This document shows, in pieces, positions 5,307-63,333 of a stretch of DNA of 64,000 nucleotides. How positions within the stretch are numbered: the stretch's first letter is position 1; each line of letters opens with the position of its first letter. The position numbers were made by a program, and so were the translations under genes. The stretch is from Parcubacteria group bacterium Licking1014_17. Its GTDB lineage: Bacteria; Patescibacteriota; Minisyncoccia; 2-02-FULL-40-12; IGHO2-01-FULL-4-A. The stretch covers positions 41,788-105,787 of the forward strand of contig VMGJ01000001.1 in assembly GCA_007376485.1 (NCBI GenBank), read 5' to 3'. The notes beneath the pieces were generated by a model, which was given only the letters and a program-made list of their open reading frames with translations, was not told where the DNA came from and ran no database searches.

Positions 5307-5342
5307 CCAATACACTTTTCGGGACTGAATTAGTCAGGTAAT

Positions 5343-5467
5343 ATGTCTTTTCGCAGATATTCGGGCTTTCCAGCGAAGCCCTCACTTATAGCTCGCCAGT
5401 TTTCCCACACCGGCGCGCCGGTGGGGGACCAAGCAAAACTGGCTCGCTGTACTGCTCAAAGACATAT
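5343..5467 (+). repeat. structured intergenic element family A, copy A1
   Basis: ~125 nt; terminal stem 'ATGTCTTTT'/'AAAGACAT', hairpin 'GGGCTT-TCCAGCG-AAGCCC', stem 'GCCAGTTTT'/'AAAACTGGC', variable apical hairpin 'ACCGGCGCGCCGGT'; 4 further copies in window. Confidence 0.8.
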
Positions 5468-5569
5468 TCCCTGACAATAATTTTAGTGCTCTTGTTTTCC
5501 TTACAGAGTTTAATTGTCCACATATTTCACATAAAAATTTAAATCTGTGGTATAATCCGCATTTAGAAT

Positions 5570-9307: not shown

Positions 9308-9330
9308 TTTTTGTTATTGCTCGAGCCAGC

Positions 9331-9462
9331 ATGTTTTTCGGGACTGGATTTTCACCAGCGATGAAAATCCATCTGGTGAAGTCGCTGTCATTTGTCAAGA
9401 TATTCATTTCATTCAATCATTGACAAAACCATGCTGCCAGCGACTTCAACAGCCCTCAAAAC
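9331..9462 (+). repeat. structured intergenic element family B, copy B1
   Basis: Hairpin 'GGATTTTCA-CCAGCGA-TGAAAATCC'; stem 'GAAGTCGCTG'/'CAGCGACTTC'; stem 'TTTGTCAAGA'/'TTGACAAA'; conserved 'AACCATGC'; 5 more copies. Confidence 0.8.
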
Positions 9463-9495
9463 ACGCCGGCTCTCGCTGAATACCGCGAACTACTT

Positions 9496-9632
9496 GCGCC
9501 GCATTATTGCTTTAGGGCACTATTTGAAACGCTGATTGCATGGTCCTGAGCTCGTCGAAGGAATCAGTGGTTCAACAGAATGAGCCCGCTCGCTGGGCGG
9601 GCGAATGGTGACATAAAGCAATAATGCGGCGC
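9496..9632 (+). ncRNA. candidate structured ncRNA (possibly SRP/4.5S-like); identity unconfirmed
   Basis: Perfect 19-bp closing stem 'GCGCCGCATTATTGCTTTA'(9496-9514)/'TAAAGCAATAATGCGGCGC'(9614-9632); internal hairpins 'CTGATT..AATCAG' and 'GCCCGC-TCGCTGG-GCGGGC'; internal 'GGTCC...GAAGGAATCAG' resembles SRP domain IV 'GGUCC..GGAAGGAAGCAG'. Confidence 0.3.
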
Positions 9633-9649
9633 TACAACAGAATTTTGTA

Positions 9650-10456: not shown

Positions 10457-10476
10457 TCCCTGGTTTGCCGGAGAAT

Positions 10477-10600
10477 ATGTCTTTTCGCAGATGCTCGGGC
10501 TTTCCAGCGAAGTCCTCGCTTATAGTTCGCCAGTTTTCTCCTGCCGGCACACCGGCGGTAGACCAAGCAAAACTGACTCGCTGTACTGCTCAAAGACATA
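10477..10600 (+). repeat. structured intergenic element family A, copy A2
   Basis: Same architecture as A1; apical hairpin replaced by 'CTGCCGG-CACA-CCGGCGG' (compensatory). Confidence 0.8.
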
Positions 10601-10641
10601 CTCCCTGGCAAAAAATTGTGGTGTTAATTATAAGTTTCCTT

Positions 10642-14079: not shown

Positions 14080-14108
14080 TTGACACACATTGCCGCTCGT
14101 GTAAAATA
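14080..14108 (+). promoter_or_regulatory. sigma70-like promoter of groESL
   Basis: -35 'TTGACA'(14080-14085), 17-nt spacer, -10 'TAAAAT'(14103-14108). Confidence 0.55.
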
Positions 14109-14505: not shown

Positions 14506-14543
14506 TTTGGTATTAGTTAAAAATTCGTTGCAAAAACCACAGT

Positions 14544-16336
<1,793 letters not shown>

Positions 16337-16344
16337 TTAATTAT

Positions 16345-16495
16345 TATGCCTTTTCGGGACTAAATTTTCGCCAGCGACGAAAATTTATCTGATGAGATTG
16401 CCTCTGTTTGTCAAGATATTTACCCCGACTATAAGTCGGGGCTCAATCATTGACAAAACCGTGCCAGAGGCAATCTCAACAGCCCTCAAAAGCAC
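16345..16495 (+). repeat. structured intergenic element family B, copy B3
   Basis: Hairpin 'TAAATTTTCG-CCAGCGA-CGAAAATTTA'; stem 'GAGATTGCCTCTG'/'CAGAGGCAATCTC' (fully compensatory vs B1). Confidence 0.8.
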
Positions 16496-16600
16496 AATAA
16501 TCTTTTACATTTGACTTTTGGTTGGTTTTGTGATAGCATTATGAAAGCATCTTAAAACCTTTTATTCTTACATTCTTGTCTGACCCGAAAGGAGACGGTC

Positions 16601-16947: not shown

Positions 16948-16960
16948 ATTTAAATAAAGA

Positions 16961-17001
16961 AAGCCCCTAACCTCTTGCGGAGATTGGGGGCTTTTTAAAA
17001 A
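16961..17001. terminator. bidirectional hairpin terminator between convergent genes
   Basis: 'AAAGCCCCTAACCTC-TTGCG-GAGATTGGGGGCTTTTT' flanked by A-run and T-run. Confidence 0.55.
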
Positions 17002-22938: not shown

Positions 22939-25900
22939 ATGAAAAGGATTGATTTAAAGAAGATCATCCATACTGGTCAGTTTTTTGCCGTGAAAAAGAT
23001 TTTCGCAACAAAAAGAACTCTCAAGCTGATTTTTGCCGCTGCCATAACAGCTACCGTCATATTTATTGTCATTTTCTCCTTTGTTAATGCCGGTCTTTTC
23101 AACTTCTATCCTCAAACCTGCCTTGGCGACTGGGAATACGCCGAAAACGCTTCCGGCAAACCCGACCTTCCTCCCGACGCCACTACCGAGAAATTTGATA
23201 AGAACAATTCCGCCTTCTTTTCCGGCGGTTACCGCAAGATATTCTGTGGCAACTTCAGAAGCAATGATGAATCCGGAGATAAAATCTTCCAGAAAGCAAA
23301 ATTGAGGTTGTCGTGGACACTCGTGCCGGACATCAACTCTGCGGTGCCTGTCATCGACCAATCCGAGTTTCAAAAAAATATACTGGATTATAGCGGGGAC
23401 GAAAAGATTATCGTGGTTCCCGATGAAGAAAAATCCGCTCCCGAAAAACAAGAGAATACGGTTTTACCTTCACCCGATGTAAGTTCATCAGCCGAAGAAA
23501 AAACACTGGAGCCGGTTCCGTCAGAATCACCCAGCCCTCAATCCGAATCGATTCCACCGACCGAGTCACCGCAATCTCCGGCGGAAGAGAATACCGCCCA
23601 AGAAAACGCTGATGTCGGCGAGCCGAGCAGTTTTAATGGAACATCTTTATTTAAAATGGGGCTTCTTGGCGTTTTCAGGACAGCGCTTACAGAGAATATC
23701 GGATCACTTCTGGGGTTAATAATGGAAATTAACAACAACAGCAGTTCCAGCTTGGAGGAAACGCTAACTCCTACAGAGCCCTCGGTTTTCATGCCCGAAA
23801 TAAGTATGGAGACGACTTCTGAAAAAGTTGAAACAAGTTCTACGCCCGCGAGCATTGCCGCCGGCGACGGCACGGCCTCAAAATCGGAATCCCCTCTGGA
23901 AAAAGAAATAATACCGCCAAAATCTTTGGATGATTTTCTTGAAATACTTTACAGCGTTGACGGCAAAAACTGGGAATCCATCGGCAATGTAAATCTTGAC
24001 AGTTTCAATAACGCCGAATTTGAGGTGCCTATTATTTCATGGAACGAACTGGCGAATCTCCAAATCAGAATCGGCGGGACGGGGCTGACGGACAGCGTGA
24101 GCGGAGTGTATTTGGACGGGATGTGGCTGGAAGTCAGTTATAGCGACAGTCAAGACGAGGTTGTTAGCGAGGATATAATGAGGGGATTGCCGAAAGTTCA
24201 GGTCAAAGACTCGGACGTTTTCAAATCAAAGAAAAAAGATTTTCGCTTTAACGAAGACGTGAAGTTTGAAATTAATCTTGGAAAAACGGCTTCCGGGAGC
24301 GTTGATGAAAACACGAAACCGCCAGCAACGCCTGAACCGTCGTCGCTTCTCAAAAATTCTTATAAAAATATTTTGGGCGCCGAGAGCGCCTTAGCCGCCG
24401 GCAGGATTGTTGAAGCCAGAGTATACAGCCCGACCGGCAAGCTGACAAATATAAAACCGTATATCAAGCAAGATACGGGGACTGAAACCGCGCAAATCTT
24501 TTTTTCGCCGCCCGGGCGAGCATACAAATCGGGCAAATACAAACTGGTCGTTGAGATTCTTCAGGATGACCGGGTAGTTGTGGCGGAACACGATTTTACC
24601 TGGGGTGTCCTTGCTTTGAACGCCAATAAGTCCATCTATATACCGGGCGAGTCGGCTTATCTTCAGTTCGCTTCGTTGAGCAATATAGGGCACACTTTGT
24701 GCGACAGCAATCTTGAGCTCATTATCACTCCGCCAAAAGGGCCAGAGTGGGTATTAAGCGTAGAGGACGGCGATATAAAAAGGAGCGACACCTGCGGACC
24801 CAATAATTATACCGACAAACCGGATTACTACGCGTATTACACGCCCGAATACACGGGCGCTTACGGACTCACACTGAAAAATTTGGATAACGGGAATGAA
24901 ATAACCGACTCCATTCAAGCCGACGGTTTGGTTGATATGGATGTGGAACGCGTCGGTGCGACGCGCATTAATCCGTTTTTGGGACAGAACTATTTTACGA
25001 CCATTAATATCAAAGCAGGTCAGCCTTTTGAGGGAGAAATTGTGGATACGCTCCCAAAGGGATTTGTGGTTATGGGCAGTTCCGATTACATTGTCCGCAA
25101 AACACCGACGGGCGACGTAGAAGTAGTATGGAGAAAAATTTTATTGCGTGGGGACACGGCTATCCTGACCTATGAATATGACCCGGCTGATATCTCGCCG
25201 GAGCTGTTTCTTCTGGGTCCGTTAAAATTTATCGCGAAGTCGGATCCGCTATCGTCTTTTTTTCAGGAAGCGCGCCAGTGGCAACTGGCGTCGGATTATT
25301 CCTGCGTCGCAAAAGCGACCGGCGCCTGGAGTGCCAGCGGCACTTGGACAACATGTAATTCAACCACACCCCAACCGACGGATACGGTTACAATCGCCAC
25401 AACATATGTTGTGACATTGGATACTTCGGCTACCATCGCCGGTCTTAGCCTTGCAAACACAGCTCAACTGAATCATCCCGGCACAAATGCCCTAACTGTG
25501 AATGGTTCAGTTGCCCTTACACCGCCGCCGACAGTCAATTTTAATCAATGGAACATTGCGGGAGGTACCGCGACCGTAACCGGCGCGATAACGTGGGGTG
25601 CCGGTGGCAGTTCAAAGGTATCTAAGATTTTAATTACAACCGGAACATTAAATGCCAGTGGCGGATTATCATTCGGCTGCCTTAATTACCCGGCAAGCTG
25701 CCTTATTGATATGTCGGGGGGCGCGGGCACTTTAAATTTAAGCGGCGCCATAACAAGCGTAACCAAAGGGCAACTAACGGCCGGGACCACCAGCACTTTC
25801 GTATACGCTGACCAGAGTGCCGACCAAACAATACAAATGGCTTGGGGCGGCGGCAGTTACAATAATCTTGGAATTAATAACGGCGCTAAGGTGGCAACCG

Positions 25901-28900
25901 TAGCCGAAAATATAACGACATCAAACGTGAGCGGTAGTATAACAGTTACCAGTGGCACTTTCAACGCCAGTAATGTTACGATTGCGGGCAACAGCGGCAA
26001 AACATTTGAGGTTGATAACGGAGCCACCTTCACGATGAGCGGCAATACAACTTTTCCGACCGGCTTTTCCACGTTTACTTTTCAGAGCACGAGCACCACA
26101 AAATACGGACAGAGTGTGGATTCGGATATTTCGGCGCAGAGCTATGGTTATCTGATAGTCAGTCCTGTTGCCGACCCCTCCAGCCACAGCGCTGATTTTT
26201 ATCTTGCTTCGGGAACCATTTCCACCGCCAGTGCTTTTATTGTCGCTTTGGGTTCCGCTGCCACTTCAGTTTTTGTTAATGCCGACACGAACGACCCGAC
26301 TCTTGATATAAACAGTTATTTGTCCATAGGCGCGAGCACGACTTTTCAGGCTTCAAATTCCGGAACTTTCACCATCAACGGCAGTTTGTTTAACGCCGGC
26401 ACGTTTACCCACAATAGCGGCACCGTCACTTTTGACAGCACCGCGAGCGGCAGGGGGATAAATATGAACGGCAGTTCACTATATAACTTGACGATTAACG
26501 GTTCCGGCGGCGAATGGTCGTCGCTCACAAATATGCTGACAGTAGCCAATGATTTAATCTTGACCGCCGGAACTTTAAACAATGCTTCCGGCAGTGCGGA
26601 CATTGAAGTCAACGGAAACGTTTCCTGTAACGGCACCTGCGGCACAGTCAGTTTGACAGCCGGAAAGTTTACCCAGAAAGTTGCCGCCGACAAAAATTTC
26701 GGAACGTCAGTGGCTGTTGCCACTGCCTGGACTTTCAATGCCTTGCATTTCACCAACAGCAGCGGCACCGACAGGATAATCACAACCAGTACCACCGGCA
26801 CCGGAACCATCACCGTAACAGCTTCCATGTCCATCGGCGTTTTCAGCGCCACCAACAAAGCCACGCTTGACGCCGACCACAGAACCTGGATTTTAAGCGG
26901 AAGTAATGAAGCCGATGCACACATTCCTCTTTCCATTGACGCCACCAAAGGAGCTCTAACCGCTCACGCATCGATTTTCCGCTACACCGGCAGTTCCACT
27001 ACCACAATCGAGGCGGCAACCTACTACAATCTTGAAGTAAAACCCGGTGGTGCCGTGACCCATACTTTCAAAGCGGGGACGACGACGGCTTACACTTTAA
27101 CCGCGGGAGACGGATCCAATAGCGGAACAATAACCACCAATACCAATAGCACGACCCTTGATATTGGTTTTGGAGGAGTTTCTATAGCTGCCTATGGCAC
27201 TCTCGTCGCCCATGCCAGCAATGCTTTTACTGTTGAAGGTTCATGGACAAACGCCGGCACTTTTACTCATAGTAGCGGCACGGTAACTTTTGACGGAACG
27301 ACGGTAGCTTCAATTCCAGTAACAACCGGCGGCAGTTCTTTCAATAATTTAATGATAGCGGGAGCGGGTAACTTCGCATTGCAGGATTCAACGACAATCG
27401 CCGGCGATTTGAAAGTAAACAGCGGCACCTTTTCTGGTGGCGTTGTCACGACTGTTAACGGCGACGTAACTTGTGTTACCACCTGCGGCACGATAAACTA
27501 TGCCAGCGGTATTTTTATACAAAACGTTGCCGGAAACAAAGCCTTCGGCACTACCGCCGGTACTGCTACGTGGACATTTAATGTTCTTCACTTTGCCGCC
27601 AGTGACGGTACTGACAGGGTGATTACCGCCAGTTCGGGTGGCACCGGAACCATCACCGTCACTGCCTCCATGTCCATCGGCGTATTCAGCGCCACTAACA
27701 AAGCTACGCTTGATGCCGGCAACAGAACATGGATTTTAAGCGGAAGCGACTCAAACGGTGATTCTCCCCTATCTATAGACGCCACTAAGGGCGCCTTAAC
27801 CGCTAACACGTCAACTTTCCGTTATACCGGCAGTTCAGCCACTACGATTGAGGCGGCTACTTATTACAATCTTGAAGTAAAACCCGGCGGCGCCGTGACC
27901 CATACTTTCAAGGCGGGGACAACAGGAGCAAATCATTTACTTACTATTGGCGACGGAGCTAATAGCGGAGTCGTAACAGCAAATACCAACAGTACTATTT
28001 TGGATGTAGGCGACGGCACAAGCGGCAGCGGCGTTTCAATCGCCGCCAGCGCCACGCTGACGGCCAACGCCAGCAACGGTTTCACGGTTTACGGCTCATG
28101 GACAAACGCCGGCACGTTTACCCACAGCAACGGCACGGTTACCTTTGACGGGGATGATGACTTAATTAGCTTTACCCTTACTCCGGCAAGCAGTCCATTC
28201 TACAATCTGACCGTAAATAATACGGGAGGCGCAATATGGACATTACAAAGCGGTCAGACTCTTATTGTAGCTAACGATTTATATATTAACGGCGGGACAC
28301 TGAACGACGATAGCGCTACTGCCATGGTTTTTAACGGAAACGTAACCTGTTCGGTGACCTGCGGTATTATCAACACCTCTGCCAATGTTATCCAAAACGT
28401 TGCCGCCAATAAAGTCTTCGGCACTACTGCCGGCACCGCCGCCTGGACTTTCAAAGCCCTTCATTTTGCCAACAGCAATGGAACCGACAGATTAATCACT
28501 ACCAGTTCGGGTGGCTCCGGAACCATCACCGTCACTGCCTCCATGTCCATTGGCGTTTTTAGCGCCACCAATAAAGCTACGCTTGATGCCGGCAATAGAA
28601 CTTGGATTTTAAGCGGGAGCGACTCAAACAGTGATCCCCCCTTAACTATTGACGCCTCCAAAGGGGTTTTGACTGCCAATACATCTACATTCAGATTTAC
28701 CGGTAGTTCCGCCACCACAATCGAACAAGCGACTTATTACAACCTTGAAGTAAAACCCGGCGGCGCCGTGACTCATACTTTCAAAGCGGGAACAACAGCG
28801 GCTTACGGGCTAACCGCTGGAGATGGAGTCAATAGCGGAGTCATAACGGCCAACACCAACAGCACAATCCTTGATATAGGTTTTGGGGGAGTTTCCATAG

Positions 28901-31227
28901 CCGCCAACAACACCCTTATTGCCCATGCCAGCAATGCTTTTACCTGCGAAGGTTCCTGGACAAACGCCGGCACATTCACCCATAGCAACGGCACGGTAAC
29001 TTTTGACGGAACTGGTTCCCACACAATTAATAACGGGGATAAAACCATTAATTCTTTTTACGGTCTAATAATTAATAAGGCGGGTGGAGTTTGGGATGTT
29101 ACGAGCAATGATATTGTAGTTCAATACTCACTTACAATAACAGCGGGAACTCTTGATTTAAACGGGCAGGGGTTATCTGCTAGTCTGACTTTGGTCAATG
29201 ATGACACTCTGCGTCTTCAAGGCGGTGAAACGATAACTGGATTAACTATGGACACAAATTCGGGGACAGTTGAATATGATGGCACTACCGGATACACCGG
29301 GCTTAAGGCAGGAAATGAATATTTTAATCTGAAATTTAGCGGTTCCGGAGGTTCTTGGACGTTAAATCATGACTTAGTCGTAAATGCCACTTTTGCTATT
29401 ACAAACGGAACAGTGGATGCGTCCGGTTCAAATTATGATATCAGCGTCGGCAAAAGCTGGAATAATGCCGGAACGTTCACCGCCCAGCAGGGTGCGGTCA
29501 CTTTTGACGGCAATTTTAATGTGGCGACATGGGGTATCACAACTGGCAGTAGTCCTTTTTATGATTTGGTAATAATCGGACCCGACCCCTATATGATCAG
29601 TAGCGACATTACTGTCCAAAACGATTTGGACGTGAACGGAAGCACCTTAAACGGCTTTGGTTCAAATGTCATGACCGTCAATGGAAATGTTACCTGCGTC
29701 ACTACTTGTGGCACTATTTCTGGATTAAATCTTTTCCAGACTGTCAGCGCAAACAAAGTCATTGGGCCCGTTACCGGCACGAACGACTGGTCGTTTGGTT
29801 TTCTTCATCTGTCCACTTCCGGAGGTTCGGACAGAACCATTACCGTGAACAGCGGAGGTAGCGGGGCATTTGCCGTGGCTTCCTCCATGTCCATCGGTGT
29901 TTACAGCGCTTCCGCGAAGACCATTCTTGACGCGGACAATAAGACATTTATATTGAACGGCAGCGACGAAGCCGATGGAGATGTTCCGTTCACCGTCGGC
30001 GCCAACGGCACTTTTACGCAAAATACTTCCACTTTCAGATTCGCCGGCACTTCGGCGACCACCGTTGCTGCGGGAACTTATTATAATTTGGAAATAAAAC
30101 CGGGCGGAACAGGCACTCACACCATAGCAAGCGGCGCTTTGAAAACGAATAATAATTTTGTAATTGGCGACGGGACGCATACCGGCTCGGTAAACGCTAC
30201 GACAAACGACCCCAATATCAACGTGGACGGAAGCTTTTCAATCGCGGCGAGTTCCGAGTTTGTTGCTTCTGACGCCGGAACATTTTCAATAGCCAAAAAC
30301 TTTTCGAATTCCGGCGCATTTACCCATAGCAATGGCACGGTAACTTTTGACTCACTTAACAACAGCACCGTCAGCGGCTCTAATACAATCTTTTATGGTT
30401 TATCGATGGCGACTGACAACAAAAAAATGAGGTTCACTGCCGGGCAGACGTTTGAAACTGACGGATTGATGACGCTTGGCGGTTCCGATGCCGACAATCA
30501 GGTTCAAATCGTTTCTACCGCCTCTGATTCGCAATGGTTTATAAATCACCAAGGGACCGAAAGCGTGAACTATACGTACGTCCATGATTCGGGTTGCGAC
30601 GCTTCCTCAACGGACATAACAGTTACTACGGGTACCGACGGCGGCAACAACGGGCTATGCTGGGTGTTCGATTATAATATAACGGTTGCGCTCTGTTCGG
30701 ATCCCGACATTGATTTTGGAACTTTGGCGCCGGGCAGCGGCAGGGTTACCAGAACCTCGTGTATTTCGATTAACACCAACAATCCCAGCGGTTATTCGAT
30801 CAGCGCCGGAAGGGACCGGGCAAGTCCGGCAACCACGCTTGCCTCCGAGGGGGATACAAGCATTAATATTTCCGATACGCTGAACGGCATTGATGTTTTT
30901 GACGGATTATCCAGTTGCACCGCCAGCCCCAATATAACTTCGCCGTGGGTTGAAGGTGCGTCAACAGGCCTCGGCTATGTTCTTTATAGAGCCGATGTCG
31001 GTAAAAGCACAACATGCTGGGGCACGGGGACAAACGAAACCGATTCCGCGAACCGATATGCTGCCTTGCCGGCTTCAAATGGACCGGCGGATGTATTTTT
31101 GAATGTGCCCGTAAATTCTCCGAATCCTTCCTATTCTTCGGTCGGCTGGAGTTTGGATATCCCCACAAATCAAATTCCCACTTCTTACGGCGGTATGGTG
31201 ATTTATTCAATTACCGCTAATCCTTAA
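22939..31227 (+). CDS. giant (2762 aa) repetitive cell-surface protein
   Basis: N-terminal TM, S/P/E-rich linker, ~285-aa tandem repeats ('TFTHSNGTVTFDG..TGTITVTASMSIGVFSATNKATLDAGNRTWILSGS..'), C-terminal ~230-aa domain shared with 33669..34433. Confidence 0.85.
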   Translation: MKRIDLKKIIHTGQFFAVKKIFATKRTLKLIFAAAITATVIFIVIFSFVNAGLFNFYPQTCLGDWEYAENASGKPDLPPDATTEKFDKNNSAFFSGGYRKIFCGNFRSNDESGDKIFQKAKLRLSWTLVPDINSAVPVIDQSEFQKNILDYSGDEKIIVVPDEEKSAPEKQENTVLPSPDVSSSAEEKTLEPVPSESPSPQSESIPPTESPQSPAEENTAQENADVGEPSSFNGTSLFKMGLLGVFRTALTENIGSLLGLIMEINNNSSSSLEETLTPTEPSVFMPEISMETTSEKVETSSTPASIAAGDGTASKSESPLEKEIIPPKSLDDFLEILYSVDGKNWESIGNVNLDSFNNAEFEVPIISWNELANLQIRIGGTGLTDSVSGVYLDGMWLEVSYSDSQDEVVSEDIMRGLPKVQVKDSDVFKSKKKDFRFNEDVKFEINLGKTASGSVDENTKPPATPEPSSLLKNSYKNILGAESALAAGRIVEARVYSPTGKLTNIKPYIKQDTGTETAQIFFSPPGRAYKSGKYKLVVEILQDDRVVVAEHDFTWGVLALNANKSIYIPGESAYLQFASLSNIGHTLCDSNLELIITPPKGPEWVLSVEDGDIKRSDTCGPNNYTDKPDYYAYYTPEYTGAYGLTLKNLDNGNEITDSIQADGLVDMDVERVGATRINPFLGQNYFTTINIKAGQPFEGEIVDTLPKGFVVMGSSDYIVRKTPTGDVEVVWRKILLRGDTAILTYEYDPADISPELFLLGPLKFIAKSDPLSSFFQEARQWQLASDYSCVAKATGAWSASGTWTTCNSTTPQPTDTVTIATTYVVTLDTSATIAGLSLANTAQLNHPGTNALTVNGSVALTPPPTVNFNQWNIAGGTATVTGAITWGAGGSSKVSKILITTGTLNASGGLSFGCLNYPASCLIDMSGGAGTLNLSGAITSVTKGQLTAGTTSTFVYADQSADQTIQMAWGGGSYNNLGINNGAKVATVAENITTSNVSGSITVTSGTFNASNVTIAGNSGKTFEVDNGATFTMSGNTTFPTGFSTFTFQSTSTTKYGQSVDSDISAQSYGYLIVSPVADPSSHSADFYLASGTISTASAFIVALGSAATSVFVNADTNDPTLDINSYLSIGASTTFQASNSGTFTINGSLFNAGTFTHNSGTVTFDSTASGRGINMNGSSLYNLTINGSGGEWSSLTNMLTVANDLILTAGTLNNASGSADIEVNGNVSCNGTCGTVSLTAGKFTQKVAADKNFGTSVAVATAWTFNALHFTNSSGTDRIITTSTTGTGTITVTASMSIGVFSATNKATLDADHRTWILSGSNEADAHIPLSIDATKGALTAHASIFRYTGSSTTTIEAATYYNLEVKPGGAVTHTFKAGTTTAYTLTAGDGSNSGTITTNTNSTTLDIGFGGVSIAAYGTLVAHASNAFTVEGSWTNAGTFTHSSGTVTFDGTTVASIPVTTGGSSFNNLMIAGAGNFALQDSTTIAGDLKVNSGTFSGGVVTTVNGDVTCVTTCGTINYASGIFIQNVAGNKAFGTTAGTATWTFNVLHFAASDGTDRVITASSGGTGTITVTASMSIGVFSATNKATLDAGNRTWILSGSDSNGDSPLSIDATKGALTANTSTFRYTGSSATTIEAATYYNLEVKPGGAVTHTFKAGTTGANHLLTIGDGANSGVVTANTNSTILDVGDGTSGSGVSIAASATLTANASNGFTVYGSWTNAGTFTHSNGTVTFDGDDDLISFTLTPASSPFYNLTVNNTGGAIWTLQSGQTLIVANDLYINGGTLNDDSATAMVFNGNVTCSVTCGIINTSANVIQNVAANKVFGTTAGTAAWTFKALHFANSNGTDRLITTSSGGSGTITVTASMSIGVFSATNKATLDAGNRTWILSGSDSNSDPPLTIDASKGVLTANTSTFRFTGSSATTIEQATYYNLEVKPGGAVTHTFKAGTTAAYGLTAGDGVNSGVITANTNSTILDIGFGGVSIAANNTLIAHASNAFTCEGSWTNAGTFTHSNGTVTFDGTGSHTINNGDKTINSFYGLIINKAGGVWDVTSNDIVVQYSLTITAGTLDLNGQGLSASLTLVNDDTLRLQGGETITGLTMDTNSGTVEYDGTTGYTGLKAGNEYFNLKFSGSGGSWTLNHDLVVNATFAITNGTVDASGSNYDISVGKSWNNAGTFTAQQGAVTFDGNFNVATWGITTGSSPFYDLVIIGPDPYMISSDITVQNDLDVNGSTLNGFGSNVMTVNGNVTCVTTCGTISGLNLFQTVSANKVIGPVTGTNDWSFGFLHLSTSGGSDRTITVNSGGSGAFAVASSMSIGVYSASAKTILDADNKTFILNGSDEADGDVPFTVGANGTFTQNTSTFRFAGTSATTVAAGTYYNLEIKPGGTGTHTIASGALKTNNNFVIGDGTHTGSVNATTNDPNINVDGSFSIAASSEFVASDAGTFSIAKNFSNSGAFTHSNGTVTFDSLNNSTVSGSNTIFYGLSMATDNKKMRFTAGQTFETDGLMTLGGSDADNQVQIVSTASDSQWFINHQGTESVNYTYVHDSGCDASSTDITVTTGTDGGNNGLCWVFDYNITVALCSDPDIDFGTLAPGSGRVTRTSCISINTNNPSGYSISAGRDRASPATTLASEGDTSINISDTLNGIDVFDGLSSCTASPNITSPWVEGASTGLGYVLYRADVGKSTTCWGTGTNETDSANRYAALPASNGPADVFLNVPVNSPNPSYSSVGWSLDIPTNQIPTSYGGMVIYSITANP
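26395..29010 (+). repeat. tandem ~856-nt (285-aa) intragenic repeats, 3 near-identical units plus degenerate units to ~30.4 kb
   Basis: Unit starts marked by 'GGCAC.TT.AC.CA.A..A.CGGCAC.GT.AC.TTTGAC' at ~26398, 27258, 28110, 28966; long identical stretches e.g. 'GTCACTGCCTCCATGTCCATCGGCGT' recurring. Confidence 0.8.
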
Positions 31228-41880: not shown

Positions 41881-42174
41881 AGTAACGGTGTTCTTTTATT
41901 CGGAGGTGTAAATTGAGGGACAAATACGTGAAGGCATTATGCGGTTTTTTGGGGGAAGAGGCAATCGAAGTTCTCGAGGAAAATCCCGAAAAAATAAGTG
42001 AAGCCGTGGGATTACTAAAAGTGATTGAGTCAAAATTTGGGGTGCCTCGCCATGATCAAACCCCATTACCGGGATTGGGAATTTCTCCCCCGCTGATTCA
42101 AGGTAGTTTAGATATCTGTCGCACATAGTTTACCTCTGTTTCGAGCATTAGGCGGGCTGTTCCACTAAGTCCGC

Positions 42175-42226
42175 CTTTTATATTCAATCGCCCGACTTCC
42201 CGTATTCCGGTCCGAGAAAATCATTT
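42175..42226 (+). repeat. ~52-nt direct repeat copy 1 (preceded by hairpin + TTTTAT)
   Basis: 'CTTTTATATTCAATCGCCCGACTTCCCGTATTCCGGTCCGAGAAAATCATTT' ~85% identical to 43019-43071. Confidence 0.6.
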
Positions 42227-42495: not shown

Positions 42496-42825
42496 CTAAT
42501 TTCCGCCGTAACCCCCGCCGCCGAAACCGTGGCTTCCGCGGAATCCTCCTCCGCCGCCTTGTCTGGGCGGGCGGGCTTCCGGCGGGCGGGCTTCGTTGAC
42601 CGTAATGGTGCGGCCGTCAAATTCCTTGCCGTTCATGCCTTCTATGGCTTTTTGGGCTTCTTCCTCCGTGGACATTTCCACAAAGCCGAATCCCTTTGAA
42701 CGGCCGGACATTCTGTCGATAATGACTGCCGCCGACTCAACCGTGCCAAACTGGGCGAATGCCTCTTTCAGCTTTTCCTCGGTTGTATCGTAAGACAATC
42801 CTCCGACGTATAATTTCTTTGCCAT
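42496..42825 (-). CDS. RRM-type glycine-rich RNA-binding protein
   Basis: 'KLYVGGLSYDTTEEKLKEAF' RNP2, 'KGFGFVEM' RNP1, C-terminal 'GGGGGFRGSHGFGGGGYGG'; start set at MAKK (ORF extends to 42858). Confidence 0.8.
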   Translation of the reverse strand: MAKKLYVGGLSYDTTEEKLKEAFAQFGTVESAAVIIDRMSGRSKGFGFVEMSTEEEAQKAIEGMNGKEFDGRTITVNEARPPEARPPRQGGGGGFRGSHGFGGGGYGGN

Positions 42826-43018
42826 TTTTTCTGTACACACAACTAAACTAATTTGCAAGTCCGACCCTCGCTACTTTTTCCCTTTCGGACTCGCACATGT
42901 TTATTTGTGTAAGGAAGTAAAAAAATAGAAGCGCTTGCATCTAATATTAATAATAAGACATTCCGGGGGAGAAAGCAATAGAAGAGCAGCTGCCGGACGG
43001 GATGGTTAACTGCTATCC

Positions 43019-43071
43019 CTTTTATATTTAGTCGCCCGACTTCCTGTATCCCGGTTCGGGAAAATCTTTTT
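43019..43071 (+). repeat. ~52-nt direct repeat copy 2
   Basis: 'CTTTTATATTTAGTCGCCCGACTTCCTGTATCCCGGTTCGGGAAAATCTTTTT'. Confidence 0.6.
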
Positions 43072-43082
43072 CCTCACACAGC

Positions 43083-43116
43083 GACATTCTCACATTCTTG
43101 AGAATGTGAGAATGAC
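43083..43116. promoter_or_regulatory. 34-bp palindrome (candidate operator) upstream of ArsR-like gene
   Basis: 'GACATTCTCACATTC-TTGA-GAATGTGAGAATGAC' (one mismatch). Confidence 0.55.
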
Positions 43117-43127
43117 ATATTTTATAG

Positions 43128-43469
43128 GTGTGTTATGATGTATTTATGGGTGTGGGACTTTTTCATAAAAGAAATAGAAATAAAAATAAGTCTGCCAAAA
43201 CCGCCAAGCAGATGGAACGACATTTCAAGGGGATAGCCAATCACCGACGAATTGAAGTTCTACTTCTCATTGATAAGCATGGGGGAATAAGCGTGGAAGA
43301 AATAGCGGAAAGCGTTGCCTGCAATTTCAAAACAATTTCTGAACATGTGCGCCGGCTCGCGCAAGCGGGGCTTGTTGAGAAAAAATACAAGGGCCGTTTA
43401 GTCACTCACACCCTGTCTCCCTACGGTAAAATTTTTACTGAATTTATATTGACATTCTCACATTCTTGA
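43128..43469 (+). CDS. ArsR/SmtB-family winged-helix transcriptional regulator
   Basis: 'HFKGIANHRRIEVLLLI..ISVEEIAESVACNFKTISEHVRRLAQAGLVEKKYKGRLVTHTL' ArsR-type HTH; real start may be a downstream Met. Confidence 0.65.
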   Translation: MCYDVFMGVGLFHKRNRNKNKSAKTAKQMERHFKGIANHRRIEVLLLIDKHGGISVEEIAESVACNFKTISEHVRRLAQAGLVEKKYKGRLVTHTLSPYGKIFTEFILTFSHS

Positions 43470-43484
43470 GAATGTGAGAATGTC
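43451..43484. promoter_or_regulatory. 34-bp perfect palindrome overlapping ArsR-like stop codon, upstream of helicase gene
   Basis: 'GACATTCTCACATTC-TTGA-GAATGTGAGAATGTC' perfect 15-bp arms. Confidence 0.55.
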
Positions 43485-43522
43485 ATATTTTTTGGGAAGT
43501 GTGCTAGTGTTATTATGAATAT

Positions 43523-49666: not shown

Positions 49667-49706
49667 TAGGATACGAGTGCTTTTAAGAAAATCATGTTAA
49701 GGGTAC

Positions 49707-49864
49707 GCCGATATGCCTTTTCGGGACTGAATTTCCCCCCGCGAGGAAAATTCATCTGGTGAAGCCACTGTTATTTGTCAAGACACAAACCCCGCCACTG
49801 GTGGGGTTTGATCGTTGACAAAGCCGTGCTAACAGTGGCTTCAACAGCCCGAAAAGGCATATCG
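49707..49864 (+). repeat. structured intergenic element family B, copy B4
   Basis: 18-bp outer stem 'CCGATATGCCTTTTCGGG'/'CCCGAAAAGGCATATCGG'; hairpin 'TGAATTTCCCC-CCGCGA-GGAAAATTCA'; stem 'GAAGCCACTGTTA'/'TAACAGTGGCTTC'. Confidence 0.8.
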
Positions 49865-50010
49865 GCTAATGCAAGCAATACAGATTGACCCATTCGGCAA
49901 GGTTCAGGGTCAATCCTGAGCGAAGCCGAAGGATTGACTTCCGGCGGTTTTTGCTTTAGTATAGACTTTCTACTTTTGAGTAATTTTTTTGTTTTAATAA
50001 CACCATTTAA

Positions 50011-51585: not shown

Positions 51586-51623
51586 ATTGTCTGTTTTTTC
51601 GGGGTTTATAAAAATGCGAATAA

Positions 51624-51766
51624 TTAGCGGTTTTTATCATCATTTACCCTGCCAGCGTCAGGATTCATTCCGTCAGAGCTGTGGATTTGGCTTGAAGTTT
51701 AGGAAGATATTATACTTCAAGCCAACCGTGCAATCCACAGCTCTGAACGGTGCTAAAAACCGCTAG
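51624..51766 (+). repeat. structured intergenic element family B, diverged copy B6
   Basis: Outer stem 'TAGCGGTTTTTA'/'TAAAAACCGCTA'; 'CCAGCG' loop; stem 'CAGAGCTGTGGATT'/'AATCCACAGCTCTG'; inner 'GGCTTGAAGT'/'ACTTCAAGCC'; 'AACCGTGC' conserved. Confidence 0.7.
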
Positions 51767-51781
51767 TTATTTGTTTTTTTT

Positions 51782-52503: not shown

Positions 52504-53745
52504 ATGTTCATCAGGGATATATTCACAATGTCGGTCAAAGGGGTGTCTATCCAGAAATCGCGTTCAGCGCTGACAATTTTAGGCATCGTAATCGGTATCG
52601 CGTCGGTAATTTTAATAATGTCCCTCGGCAGTAGCGCTCAAAGTCTGATTGTCAGCCAGGTTGAAAGCCTGGGTCCCGCTAATATTTTTATATTGCCCGG
52701 CAGAGAGCCGACCAGTGTTCAGGATTTTGCCGGTTCGTTGCTTAGCGATTCACTGCGGGAGCGCGACGTCGCCGAATTAAAGAAAAAAGAGAATGTGCCT
52801 CATATGGTTCGTATTGTGCCATTTGTTTTCGGTCCGGCGGTGATGTCTTACGAGTCAGAGGTAAGAAGCGAAACGGTTATCGGCGGGACCTCGGAATTGG
52901 CGAGCACCTTTAATTTAACGGTCGGCACGGGCGATTTTTACACCGATGACGACGTTCTTCAAAAAAACCAGGTAGTGGTGCTTGGTTCCAAAATCGCCAC
53001 TGATTTATTCGGAACGCAGGATATAATCGGCCATCGGGTGCACATAAAAGACAGGTCTTTCAGGGTGATTGGCGTGATGGATTCAAAGGGGCAAGGTTCG
53101 TTTGCCGATTTTGACCAATCGGTTCTGATGCCCTATTCAACCGCCCAGCAGTATCTTTTGGGCATCAGGTATTTTCACAGGATAATTATCGAAATAGATT
53201 CGGCTAATTACATAAATGACAGCATAGCGGATATACAGGATACGCTTCGGACAACCCATAATATCAAGGATCCTTCCAAGGATGATTTTAACGTAAAAAC
53301 ACAGGCGGATTTGGTAAAAACAGTGGGGAGCATAACAACCGTGCTCACAACGCTGTTGTCAGCCGTGGCGGCGATTTCACTGCTTGTTGGTGGCATCGGC
53401 ATTATGAACATAATGCTGGTTTCCGTTACCGAGCGCACGCGAGAAATCGGCTTGAGAAAAGCGCTAGGTGCGACAAACAGGGATGTTCTGCTTCAATTTC
53501 TGCTTGAAGCCGTGATTCTGACTTTAGCCGGAGGCGTTATTGGAATAATTATCGGCGCGGGTGGGTCTTTATTGGCGTCTATCGCTTTTAAAAGTCTTGT
53601 ATCTTCGAGCTGGAATTTTTCCCTCCCGTTTTCCGCGATTTTACTTGGCTGCGGCGTGTCGGTGATTATTGGAATTATTTTCGGCATTTATCCGGCGCGC
53701 TCGGCCGCCAAGAAAAGCCCGATGGAGGCGTTGAGGTACGAATAA
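52504..53745 (+). CDS. ABC transporter permease, FtsX/MacB-like
   Basis: 413 aa, N-terminal TM + large periplasmic MacB_PCD-like domain + 3 C-terminal TM (FtsX fold). Confidence 0.8.
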   Translation: MFIRDIFTMSVKGVSIQKSRSALTILGIVIGIASVILIMSLGSSAQSLIVSQVESLGPANIFILPGREPTSVQDFAGSLLSDSLRERDVAELKKKENVPHMVRIVPFVFGPAVMSYESEVRSETVIGGTSELASTFNLTVGTGDFYTDDDVLQKNQVVVLGSKIATDLFGTQDIIGHRVHIKDRSFRVIGVMDSKGQGSFADFDQSVLMPYSTAQQYLLGIRYFHRIIIEIDSANYINDSIADIQDTLRTTHNIKDPSKDDFNVKTQADLVKTVGSITTVLTTLLSAVAAISLLVGGIGIMNIMLVSVTERTREIGLRKALGATNRDVLLQFLLEAVILTLAGGVIGIIIGAGGSLLASIAFKSLVSSSWNFSLPFSAILLGCGVSVIIGIIFGIYPARSAAKKSPMEALRYE

Positions 53746-53750
53746 ACTCT

Positions 53751-53887
53751 CGCTAATCGCTTTGACGGACGTAAATTTTCCCGGCGAGAAAATTTACTCT
53801 CGTGATGTTGCTGTTGTTTGTCAAGACATAAAGCCGTTGACAAAACCATGCCAACAGCAACATCAAGAGCCGACAAAGCGATTAGCT
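53751..53887 (+). repeat. structured intergenic element family B, copy B5
   Basis: Outer stem 'GCTAATCGCTTTGACGG'/'CCGACAAAGCGATTAGC'; hairpin 'GTAAATTTTCCC-GGCGA-GAAAATTTAC'; stem 'GATGTTGCTGTTG'/'CAACAGCAACATC'. Confidence 0.8.
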
Positions 53888-53950
53888 CGTTTCACATCAT
53901 TCACCCATCATTAGCGAATAGATGTATTGTTGATATGTTTTTATTTTTAA

Positions 53951-57470: not shown

Positions 57471-57509
57471 GGCAAATGAAGTTGTGGATAAGTAGTTACT
57501 GGCGGCAAA

Positions 57510-57633
57510 CTGCTTTTTCGCAGATGCTCGGGCTTTCCAGCGAAGCCCTCGCTTATACCTCGCCAGTTTTCCCCCACCAGCACGCTGGTGAGGGACCAAG
57601 CAAAACTGGCTCAGTGTACTGCTCAAAGACATA
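57510..57633 (+). repeat. structured intergenic element family A, copy A3
   Basis: Apical hairpin 'CACCAGC-ACG-CTGGTG'; 5' terminal arm diverged. Confidence 0.75.
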
Positions 57634-57751
57634 TTCCCCAGTCAAAACAGCGGCAATCTCAATAGCCCTCAAAGCATATTGGCTCACTGCACCGCTCAAA
57701 AGCGGTTTGCCGCCAGCTCGGGTTGTAATTTTACCTTTTCCTTTATAAAAT

Positions 57752-60306: not shown

Positions 60307-60340
60307 AAATCTGCGATCAAATACCATAAACTGGTTGGGA

Positions 60341-60465
60341 ATATATCTTTTCGCAGATGCTCGGGCTTTCCAGCGAAGCCCTCGCTTATACCTCGCCAGT
60401 TTTCCCGCACTATATCAGTGCGGGGCCAAGCAAAACTGGCTCGCTGTACTGCTCAGAGATATATT
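60341..60465 (+). repeat. structured intergenic element family A, copy A4
   Basis: Terminal stem 'ATATATCTTTT'/'AGAGATATAT' (G>A and C>T compensatory vs A1); apical hairpin 'CCGCACT-ATAT-CAGTGCGG'. Confidence 0.8.
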
Positions 60466-60545
60466 TCCAGCCAGCCATCATGCATCGACTCATAGTCGGA
60501 TTATTATGTTGGTTTACTATTATTAGCATATGCTATAATAAAAAG

Positions 60546-63109: not shown

Positions 63110-63160
63110 CTATATACTAGCTGTTCGCCATTACTTTTTTGCACCACTTGCTTTAACTGA

Positions 63161-63288
63161 AATAAACACAGTTTTTCGCAGATGCTCGGACTTTCCAGCG
63201 AAGTCCTCGCTTATAGCTCACCAGTTTTCCGCTAATGAGCGGACCAAGCAAAACTGGCTCGCTGTACTGCTCAAAACTATGTTTATTT
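63161..63288 (+). repeat. structured intergenic element family A, copy A5
   Basis: Terminal stem replaced by 'AAATAAACACAGTTTT'/'AAAACTATGTTTATTT' (different sequence, same pairing); apical hairpin 'CCGCT-AATG-AGCGG'. Confidence 0.8.
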
Positions 63289-63333
63289 CGGGGGATAATA
63301 GCTATGCAGAAGCTATTGAACCATAACAAGCTA

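Follow-up and report, generated by a model that had tools for sequence, protein, structure and literature searches.

The intergenic repeats in this part of the genome of Parcubacteria group bacterium Licking1014_17 belong to three families (A, B and C), which are diverged copies of a single element of 137-174 nt spread through the intergenic spacers and folding into a three-way junction with two conserved single-stranded motifs. We analysed a window of 64,000 nt (assembly GCA_007376485.1, contig VMGJ01000001.1, positions 41,788 to 105,787 of the forward strand; coordinates below count from the first letter of this window) and the adjoining contig sequence. In ~82 kb of contig there are 15 copies, 12 inside the window (five A, five B and two C) and three just upstream of it (one A, named A0, one B, and one C, named C0), together occupying ~2.7% of the 82-kb stretch; walking the contig ~9 kb further on each side yielded no copies beyond the three upstream. 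All 15 are intergenic and 14 lie on the plus strand, C1 being the sole minus-strand copy. They form two clusters, and the window is free of copies between 16.5 and 49.7 kb. A preliminary description made from the letters of the window had counted 11 copies in two families; the relation that it saw between A and B stands, while the third family and the minus-strand copy had escaped it.

Architecture of the element

The fold common to all copies begins with a closing helix (P1) of 15-20 bp, whose sequence varies among copies while its pairing is kept. Next come a small internal loop, formed in A and B by TC facing TC, and a short helix (P2), and from there two branches emerge. The first is a hairpin (P3) with the loop CCNGCG, mostly with an A after it, and the second is a long arm that ends in a variable-length tip and has, on its 3' strand, a 7-nt bulge, RCCRWGC. 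The start motif of the families consists of the innermost part of P1 together with the internal loop, and its mirrored counterpart on the 3' side is CTCAAAG or CTCAAAA. The same architecture was obtained from consensus folding of A and of B separately, as well as from single-sequence folding, and the C copies adopt the fold of A and B, their loop reading CCAGCG(A/T) and their bulge ACCATGC or ACCGTGC. Ten elements (nine from the window and one from another genome, in locus L093) were tested for fold stability and gave z scores of -4.1 to -8.9, with none of 200 shuffles as stable; the predicted folding energy of the elements is -50 to -95 kcal/mol. No two copies on the contig are near-identical, which argues against a recent burst.

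One family rather than two

Covariance models built from family A alone (R1) and from family B alone (R2) were run without filters on the window and the upstream locus. R1 matched every B and C copy over its full length and on the correct strand at 24-48 bits, with unrelated sites at 19.5 bits or less. Three elements were matched by both models at 37-65 bits, namely 9494-9634 (minus strand), 51614-51776 and one upstream, and these constitute family C. A joint model (R3), for which 13 distinct A, B and C copies were aligned to R1 and B1 and B3 were left out, recovered the full set of 15 with scores of 79-140 bits, B1 (79.2) and B3 (80.9) included although held out. Its next-best matches were the reverse strands of the same elements (at most 28.5 bits) and simple unrelated hairpins (at most 22 bits). 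The joint alignment that the preliminary description had proposed therefore gives one model that captures both A and B, and R3 can be used as a search tool for other genomes.

Moreover, standard pairs fill 91.5% of the cells of the joint alignment, against 56% in column shuffles and ~40% when partners were slid, and changes on both sides occur in 52 of 57 pairs; no shuffle reached the observed measures. Since this alignment was fitted to the structure, the pairing and covariation figures are somewhat inflated, and the family-wise and single-sequence folds agree with it independently. Covariation is also free in the stem directly below the conserved loop, which reads GGGCTT/AAGCCC, GGATTTTCA/TGAAAATCC or GCCCGC/GCGGGC. 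The element in L093 joins a B-like 5' half to a C-like 3' half, so that the families grade into one another. Because R1 aligns B and C copies end to end and R3 finds all 15, the sequence comparison supports homology of A and B over their whole length, beyond a shared module, and the common ancestor considered in the preliminary description is borne out for the entire element.

That description had also entertained a modular alternative, in which A and B are unrelated and share the start motif and the CCAGCG hairpin through recombination. Exchange of segments is real, as seen in the chimeras described below (B leader before A1 and A0; B tails after A3 and C0), but as an account of the two families it is very improbable: the likeness extends over the full architecture, down to the 3' bulge and the 3' closing motif, B and C are aligned from end to end by the model of A alone, and intermediates exist in C2 and in the L093 element.

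Constrained motifs

The shared start motif, TTTTCG, is invariant in all six A copies and exact in four of the six B copies, the deviating ones being B2 (CTCTTCG) and B5 (CTTTGAC), so that the earlier statement on it holds for A and for most of B. Both hairpins reported previously are present, GGGCTT-TCCAGCG-AAGCCC at 5363-5381 in A1 and TTTTCA-CCAGCGA-TGAAAA in B1. Their loop had been called identical. It is a family-wide motif whose third base varies, the constrained form being CCNGCG: on the contig, CCAGCG occurs in 12 of the 15 copies, with CCCGCG in B4 and CCGGCG in B5, and a homologue in another genome has CCTGCG. The form CC-N-GCG is kept in all 17 elements (15 on the contig and two foreign, from three genomes), the third base being A in 13 elements and C, G or T in one each. 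Copies with a non-conserved loop, on which the preliminary description had made its proposal depend, did not appear in this set.

A conserved CCNGCG above a freely covarying stem agrees with a functional site, as had been proposed; protein binding or a tertiary contact, the roles then suggested, may be what it serves. The earlier reading had overlooked a second invariant single-stranded motif, the 3' bulge, which is ACCAAGC or GCCAAGC in A and ACCATGC, ACCGTGC or GCCGTGC in B, and whose core CC-R-W-GC is kept in the 15 contig copies and in both foreign homologues. We looked for covariation between the third loop position and the bulge, and for a complementary partner of the loop, and found none that was consistent. 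Since the hairpin measures 5-11 bp and the bulge lies ~15-18 bp along the other arm, the modelled geometry makes a direct loop-bulge contact unlikely, and two separate recognition sites are more plausible.

Hybrid junctions

Directly in front of A1, the 5' leader of family B had been reported at 5316-5332. The leader, CTTTTCGGGACTGAATT, is present and abuts A1, at 5315-5331 (plus strand), one base to the left. It matches the start of B4 (49717-49733) at 17 of 17 positions. The parts of B that it contains are the innermost stretch of the closing helix, TTTTCG, GGGAC and the beginning of the B hairpin's 5' strand; the closing helix of A1 begins two bases past it. With up to three mismatches the leader has only five sites, which are the one at 5315 and the 5' ends of B1-B4. 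Shuffles gave 0.4 matches on average, and none of 100 reached five.

The junction at A1 is one of several, which the preliminary description had missed. A0 is likewise preceded by TTCGGGACTGAATC, with the same end point as the fragment before A1. Downstream of A3, a family B 3' tail fragment follows directly at 57643-57685 (plus strand; B profile match at 57649-57685, nhmmer E = 0.0012), in which 57652-57673 fits the 22-nt pattern GGCAATCTCAAYAGCCCTCAAA exactly, as the tail of B3 does, with 0 matches expected by chance. In a hand alignment, the 5' closing strand of A3 pairs with this B tail at ~11 of 14 positions, against ~8 of 13 with its own 3' strand. C0, in turn, has AACCATGCT before it and a B tail after it. 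The fragment at 5315-5331 is thus one of at least four scars where different families fused or partly replaced each other, and the junctions are scars of nesting or recombination between subfamilies, for which shared motifs such as TTTTCG are plausible crossover points. Furthermore, ACTGR is kept in A3-A5 and CTGG in A2, 12-21 nt upstream of TTTTCG, so that, judging from these remnants, the leader may be ancestral to family A.

Copies in the window and their surroundings

The genes flanking the copies are ordinary core genes (among them mreBC, the PBP2 gene, greA, lysS, serS, an ftsQ-like gene, groES, groEL and frr), and most genes of the window lie on the plus strand, like 14 of the 15 copies. 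Twelve copies begin no more than ~70 nt past the stop codon of the preceding plus-strand gene; the remaining three are B2 (by annotation, ~24 nt beyond the groES stop), C1 and A3.

Except for C1, all copies in the window are on the plus strand. A1 (5331-5477; R1 164 bits, R3 139.9 bits, fold z = -8.9) lies between the PBP2 gene and greA, with its closing helix starting at 5333, the hairpin at 5363-5381, CCAGCG at 5370-5375 and the bulge ACCAAGC at 5428-5434. Right after it, at 5478-5569, a promoter-like region with the extended -10 TTTAAATCTGTGGTATAAT precedes greA (noted by eye and absent from the list of the promoter scan); if this promoter is active, greA would be independent of read-through across A1. 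B1 (9318-9477; R2 165 bits, loop CCAGCG at 9355-9360, bulge ACCATGC at 9428-9434) comes just after serS. C1 (9494-9634, minus strand) was matched by the A model at 48.1 and by the B model at 43.1 bits, and by R3 at 111.7 bits (minus strand; the plus strand scored 25.6); its loop is at 9591-9596 and its bulge at 9538-9544. B1 and C1 thus stand back to back with 16 nt between them (9318-9634). A2 (10465-10611; R1 158.3, R3 132.1 bits) has the convergent ftsQ-like gene on one side and a PMT glycosyltransferase gene on the other.

The groES-groEL spacer holds B2 (14529-14689; R2 151, R3 91.2 bits), upstream of which there is a strong promoter-like site at 14080-14107, and B3 (16334-16507; R2 151.3 bits) starts 6 nt past the groEL stop. 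In the second cluster, B4 (49700-49873; R2 148, R3 94.5 bits) has the loop CCCGCG at 49738-49743 and the bulge GCCGTGC, and C2 (51614-51776; R2 64.6, R1 39.2, R3 98.5 bits), with the loop CCAGCG at 51652-51657 and the bulge ACCGTGC, is an intermediate of B and C. B5 (53745-53893; R2 140.1, R3 100.2 bits, fold z = -8.3, loop CCGGCG at 53781-53786) begins at the stop codon of an FtsX-like gene. The chimeric A3 (57498-57642; R1 142 bits) has a closing helix that is partly paired in the predicted fold, while that of A4 (60331-60474; R1 150.9 bits, fold z = -8.5) has 20 bp and is fully paired. The last copy is A5 (63156-63292; R1 138.9, R3 124.1 bits).

Distribution in related genomes

The GroEL encoded here has a 100% match under the name Licking1014_17, which is a metagenome-assembled genome. 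Comparison with relatives shows spacers that lack the element. The groES-groEL spacer measures 202 nt here, with B2, against 1-28 nt in the relatives L082 and L085, and the flanks of B2 still resemble the empty L082 spacer. Similarly, the spacer filled by B1 and C1 has 342 nt, and where the closest relative of the ftsQ-like gene is found, serS directly adjoins that gene. Around groEL, 80 genome loci from GTDB, other Patescibacteria included (best relative at 74% GroEL identity), contained no element with either model, and a search with filters off on the three closest loci likewise found none. In the protein collection, identity reaches 79-82% for the closest relatives of GroEL and only 36% for the nearest relative of the fast-evolving ftsQ-like gene, which points to a lineage without a close relative on record. 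No element was found in the four loci searched from P0002, P0003 and P0007 (relatives at 80-81% GroEL identity), nor on the contigs searched from P0022, P0036 and P0122.

Profile and descriptor searches detected a single homologue in each of two further Parcubacteria, on the contigs of P0005 and P0010, at 9736-9880 of L092 and 13080-13249 of L093, both between a LemA and a Peptidase_M48 gene. As read from the alignment, the interiors of the two elements are ~90% identical, while the adjacent LemA coding DNA is ~60% identical. Their closing helices have unrelated sequences and are paired in each; rapid compensatory change, template-switch correction of inverted repeats and independent insertion are candidate explanations for this divergence. 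Our own descriptor (hairpin, bulge and closing helix) is loose, giving ~30 false positives in 1.5 Mb, mostly in G+C-rich genomes, and missing two of the 12 window copies, and was used as a pointer only.

Elsewhere, a metagenome scan with the pattern of the family A 3' half gave two chance matches inside coding sequence, scans of viral contigs gave nothing or chance coding-sequence matches spelling LDKAM, and blastn against plasmid and phage records gave no match. In the literature, we found no description of such elements in Parcubacteria or in the wider candidate-phyla radiation (CPR). Comparable spacers of other Parcubacteria contain structured insertions of other kinds: an AT-rich palindrome of 126 nt in the groES-groEL spacer (L094, 7346-7471), a 116-nt groES-groEL spacer with a hairpin (L092, 6590-6705) and a triplicated palindrome, ACATGGCGCCCATGTAG, upstream of serS (L091, 1375-1661).

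What the element may be

We tentatively favour, short of real confidence, a dispersed repeat acting as a folded RNA module inside operon transcripts. Copies that lie inside operons, such as B2, must be transcribed along with the flanking genes, and folds of the predicted stability cannot be neutral for an mRNA, which is why an RNA role is preferred. The closing helix would act as an insulating or processing stem, either by serving as a substrate of a double-strand-specific RNase or by stopping 3' exonucleases, and a trans-acting factor would dock at the loop and bulge. Spread of the family as a repeat in this lineage would have come about through some copying mechanism, with recombination at shared motifs such as TTTTCG giving rise to the chimeras. 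The closing helix is the least conserved part of the element in sequence, in contrast to a terminal repeat recognised by a transposase, and resembles a processing stem. The common fold, the two constrained motifs, the intergenic position of all copies (14 of 15 on the strand of most genes) and the retention of the element in the LemA-Peptidase_M48 spacer of both L092 and L093 also support this reading.

Several observations weigh against an RNA module. RNA-selected structures normally show far more G-U than A-C oppositions, and in the helices of the element the two are about equal (34 vs 33); single in-helix oppositions give no robust strand signal once loop-closing artefacts are discounted, the apparent A-C excess in B and C stemming largely from the loop-closing C...A positions. 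In 15 of 17 elements the antisense folds better, its predicted RNA folding energy being below that of the sense strand, likely because the unpaired motifs are C-rich on the gene-sense strand. C1 runs opposite to its neighbouring genes, and A3 is placed in a divergent promoter region. In addition, the family is multi-copy, patchy and absent from the orthologous spacers of relatives, as an insertion would be, and the stems of the L092 and L093 elements keep their sequence instead of covarying.

The main and close rival to the RNA module, which we consider possible and somewhat less probable, is a non-autonomous mobile DNA of the REP/REPIN (repetitive extragenic palindrome and its doublet) or IS200/IS605-derived kind. 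Such an element would fold as single-stranded DNA on the lagging-strand template, its loop and bulge would be recognised by a transposase or HUH-type enzyme encoded elsewhere, and effects on RNA would be incidental. A lineage-specific expansion speaks for it (15 copies in ~82 kb, against 0-1 in the ~12-21 kb samples of the closest relatives), as do the empty orthologous spacers of relatives (groES-groEL of 1-28 nt; serS abutting the ftsQ-like gene) and the nested and chimeric copies. The near equality of G-T and A-C oppositions is what would be expected if wobble pairing brings no gain, and 14 of the 15 copies lie on the strand of positive GC skew, which should be the lagging-strand template. 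The skew is positive across the window, where most genes are also on the plus strand, and transcription and replication therefore predict the same orientation here. Mobile DNA is, however, harder to reconcile with element ends that are the least conserved part, with the lack of near-identical copies, and with a fold and both motifs intact in all 15 copies. No consistent target-site duplication was seen by eye in the 45-nt flanks, the element boundaries being known within a few nt, and only a weak ATTC...ATTC is visible when the groES-groEL site is set against the empty L082 site. Pfam detected no transposase, integrase or reverse transcriptase in the ~82 kb examined. Furthermore, at the orthologous locus of L092 and L093 the interior of the element is more conserved than the neighbouring coding DNA.

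Going beyond the RNA module, we regard as unlikely, and as a speculation to be kept in sight, that the family is a new class of multi-copy structured RNA in CPR bacteria and possibly also a new copying unit. A copy would then be cut from the operon transcript at its sequence-free closing helix, and the released core of ~110 nt, with the CCNGCGA loop and the RCCRWGC bulge, would be bound by a lineage-specific protein; the fold could itself be the recognition unit of a copying mechanism that works on RNA or single-stranded DNA without conserved ends.

A small self-cleaving ribozyme or ligand-sensing riboswitch in many copies would agree with the compact three-way junction, the few invariant unpaired nucleotides and the strong covariation, but we give this little credence: no Rfam family was matched at gathering score in the window, and none of these kinds at E <=10 around A1 and B1. 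Conservation between families is lacking in the junction strands, which are short, the neighbouring genes share no function, copies lie 3' of genes as often as 5', and most relatives are without the element.

Chromosomal priming signals in single-stranded DNA, like the ssoA of rolling-circle plasmids, are the least credible of the explanations considered. The ssoA is an orientation-specific folded DNA of ~150 nt with a conserved TAGCG(T/A) in a terminal loop, an RS-B region and a CS-6 loop motif, and our element may resemble it in its size, strong fold, strand bias and a loop containing AGCG(A/T). Against this, blastn with plasmid and phage records found no similarity, the copies are clustered (none at 16.5-49.7 kb), unlike spaced priming sites, one copy is inverted, and a relative encodes DnaG primase, which indicates ordinary priming in the clade.

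Comparison with known classes

Rfam 15 gave 0 matches at the gathering threshold over the whole window, and the matches at E <=10 around A1 and B1 were short, at most 15.1 bits, and to unrelated families (such as microRNAs, small nucleolar RNAs and the rpsB small RNA); a 5S-like or other stable RNA was rejected on the lack of an Rfam match. A tRNA, tmRNA or tRNA-derived repeat was likewise discarded, ARAGORN finding no tRNA or tmRNA in the 64 kb.

Proteobacterial REP sequences, bacterial interspersed mosaic elements (BIMEs) and REPINs, associated with RAYT (REP-associated tyrosine transposase), are short folded repeats in intergenic and intra-operon spacers, with many diverged and long-lived copies, and are able to affect mRNA stability, in all of which they are like the present element. 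However, a REP is a simple imperfect palindrome of ~35 nt (doubled in the REPIN) with a conserved stem, and the element is a three-way junction of 137-174 nt with a variable closing stem and an invariant loop and bulge; no RAYT gene, nor any Y1/HUH transposase domain, occurs among the genes of the ~82 kb. Enterobacterial repetitive intergenic consensus sequences (ERIC, or intergenic repeat units) share a size of ~125-150 nt, a transcribed intergenic location and a long stem as RNA, and have variants formed by internal insertions. An ERIC sequence consists of one long imperfect palindrome that occurs in both orientations and is strongly conserved among copies and species, whereas the element branches, falls into subfamilies whose stem sequences are unrelated, and strongly prefers one strand.

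Miniature inverted-repeat transposable elements (MITEs), such as Correia and Rickettsia palindromic elements, are also non-coding, multi-copy and lineage-specific, with ends that pair and with chimeric or nested copies. They have conserved terminal inverted repeats and target-site duplications, and the terminal pairing region of our element is its least conserved part, with no consistent duplication seen. A MITE (Correia-like or Tc1/IS-derived) was rejected because the closing-helix columns carry 3-6 pair types, with both sides changed in 21 of 23 pairs; the outer 8-10 bp of the helix are unrelated between copies. Integron attC sites fold as single strands of 57-141 nt, lie in one orientation after genes, and keep structure over sequence, with an unpaired centre and a variable tip. 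The element differs in its branched fold and in its ends (...YTTT-TC-G and C-TC-AAAR..., without RYYYAAC or GTTRRRY on reading the ends), it has no integrase nearby, and it is flanked by core genes (groESL, serS, greA and frr) instead of cassettes. The precursor-processing stems of rRNA and tRNA, which are RNase III substrates, resemble it in a long helix that is formed by the flanks, keeps pairing, is free in sequence and encloses a conserved core. They differ in that the core of the element matches no stable RNA of Rfam 15 at gathering score, that there are 15 mRNA-embedded copies, and that processing is hypothetical here.

Further candidates were considered and set aside. An intrinsic terminator was rejected because no T run follows the closing helix, and canonical T-run terminators occur elsewhere (960-1031 and 16956-16998); the position of B2 between groES and groEL also argues against efficient termination. 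The promoter and terminator scan gave counts at chance level, with no dedicated promoter or T-run terminator flanking the elements. A protein-coding mini-gene does not fit tips in family A that differ in length by non-multiples of three and so disrupt any shared reading frame, compensatory changes in stems, and the lack of an annotated gene over the copies. For a hammerhead, CTGATGAG is present in B3 only, and the core is broken in the other B copies. T-box pairing or mimicry of a tRNA 3' end through CCA fails with CCG or CCC in several copies, and the TTGACA that is invariant in family B lacks a usable -10 hexamer for an internal promoter.

From the known dispersed structured intergenic repeats, the element differs in its branched fold, its sequence-free closing helix, its two invariant single-stranded motifs and its occurrence in a streamlined CPR genome. 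CPR bacteria have small streamlined genomes with few described repeats or non-coding RNAs. Some copies sit in core operons such as groESL, and the fold and both motifs are kept in every copy. If the element functions as RNA, it would represent a new class of structured RNA, one for which a single genome supplies unusually rich covariation, and would provide a handle on the processing of operon transcripts; if it is mobile DNA, its ends would be defined by pairing and not by sequence, implying an unusual copying mechanism.

Other features of the window

At 960-1031, a long terminator-like hairpin with a 22-bp stem and a 26-nt loop, followed by TTTTT, lies between a tRNA-synthetase gene ending at 945 and mreB; its long stem is the sole reason why the element models match it, weakly (~20 bits). 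A direct repeat of 53 nt (87% identity) at 42174-42226 and 43018-43070 flanks the gene of an RRM_1 RNA-binding protein (42496-42858, minus strand) and may be a regulatory or untranslated-region element of that gene. A 46-nt repeat (43083-43128 and 43451-43496) brackets a MarR/winged-helix regulator gene (43128-43469, plus strand) and contains a perfect palindrome of 13-16 bp, GACATTCTCACATTC..GAATGTGAGAATGTC, so that the pair looks like operator sites. Finally, an open reading frame of 2762 aa (22939-31227, plus strand) has tandem internal repeats of ~855 nt with 75-83% identity (26.3-30.4 kb), and a 41-nt motif of these repeats recurs in the preceding open reading frame of 879 aa.

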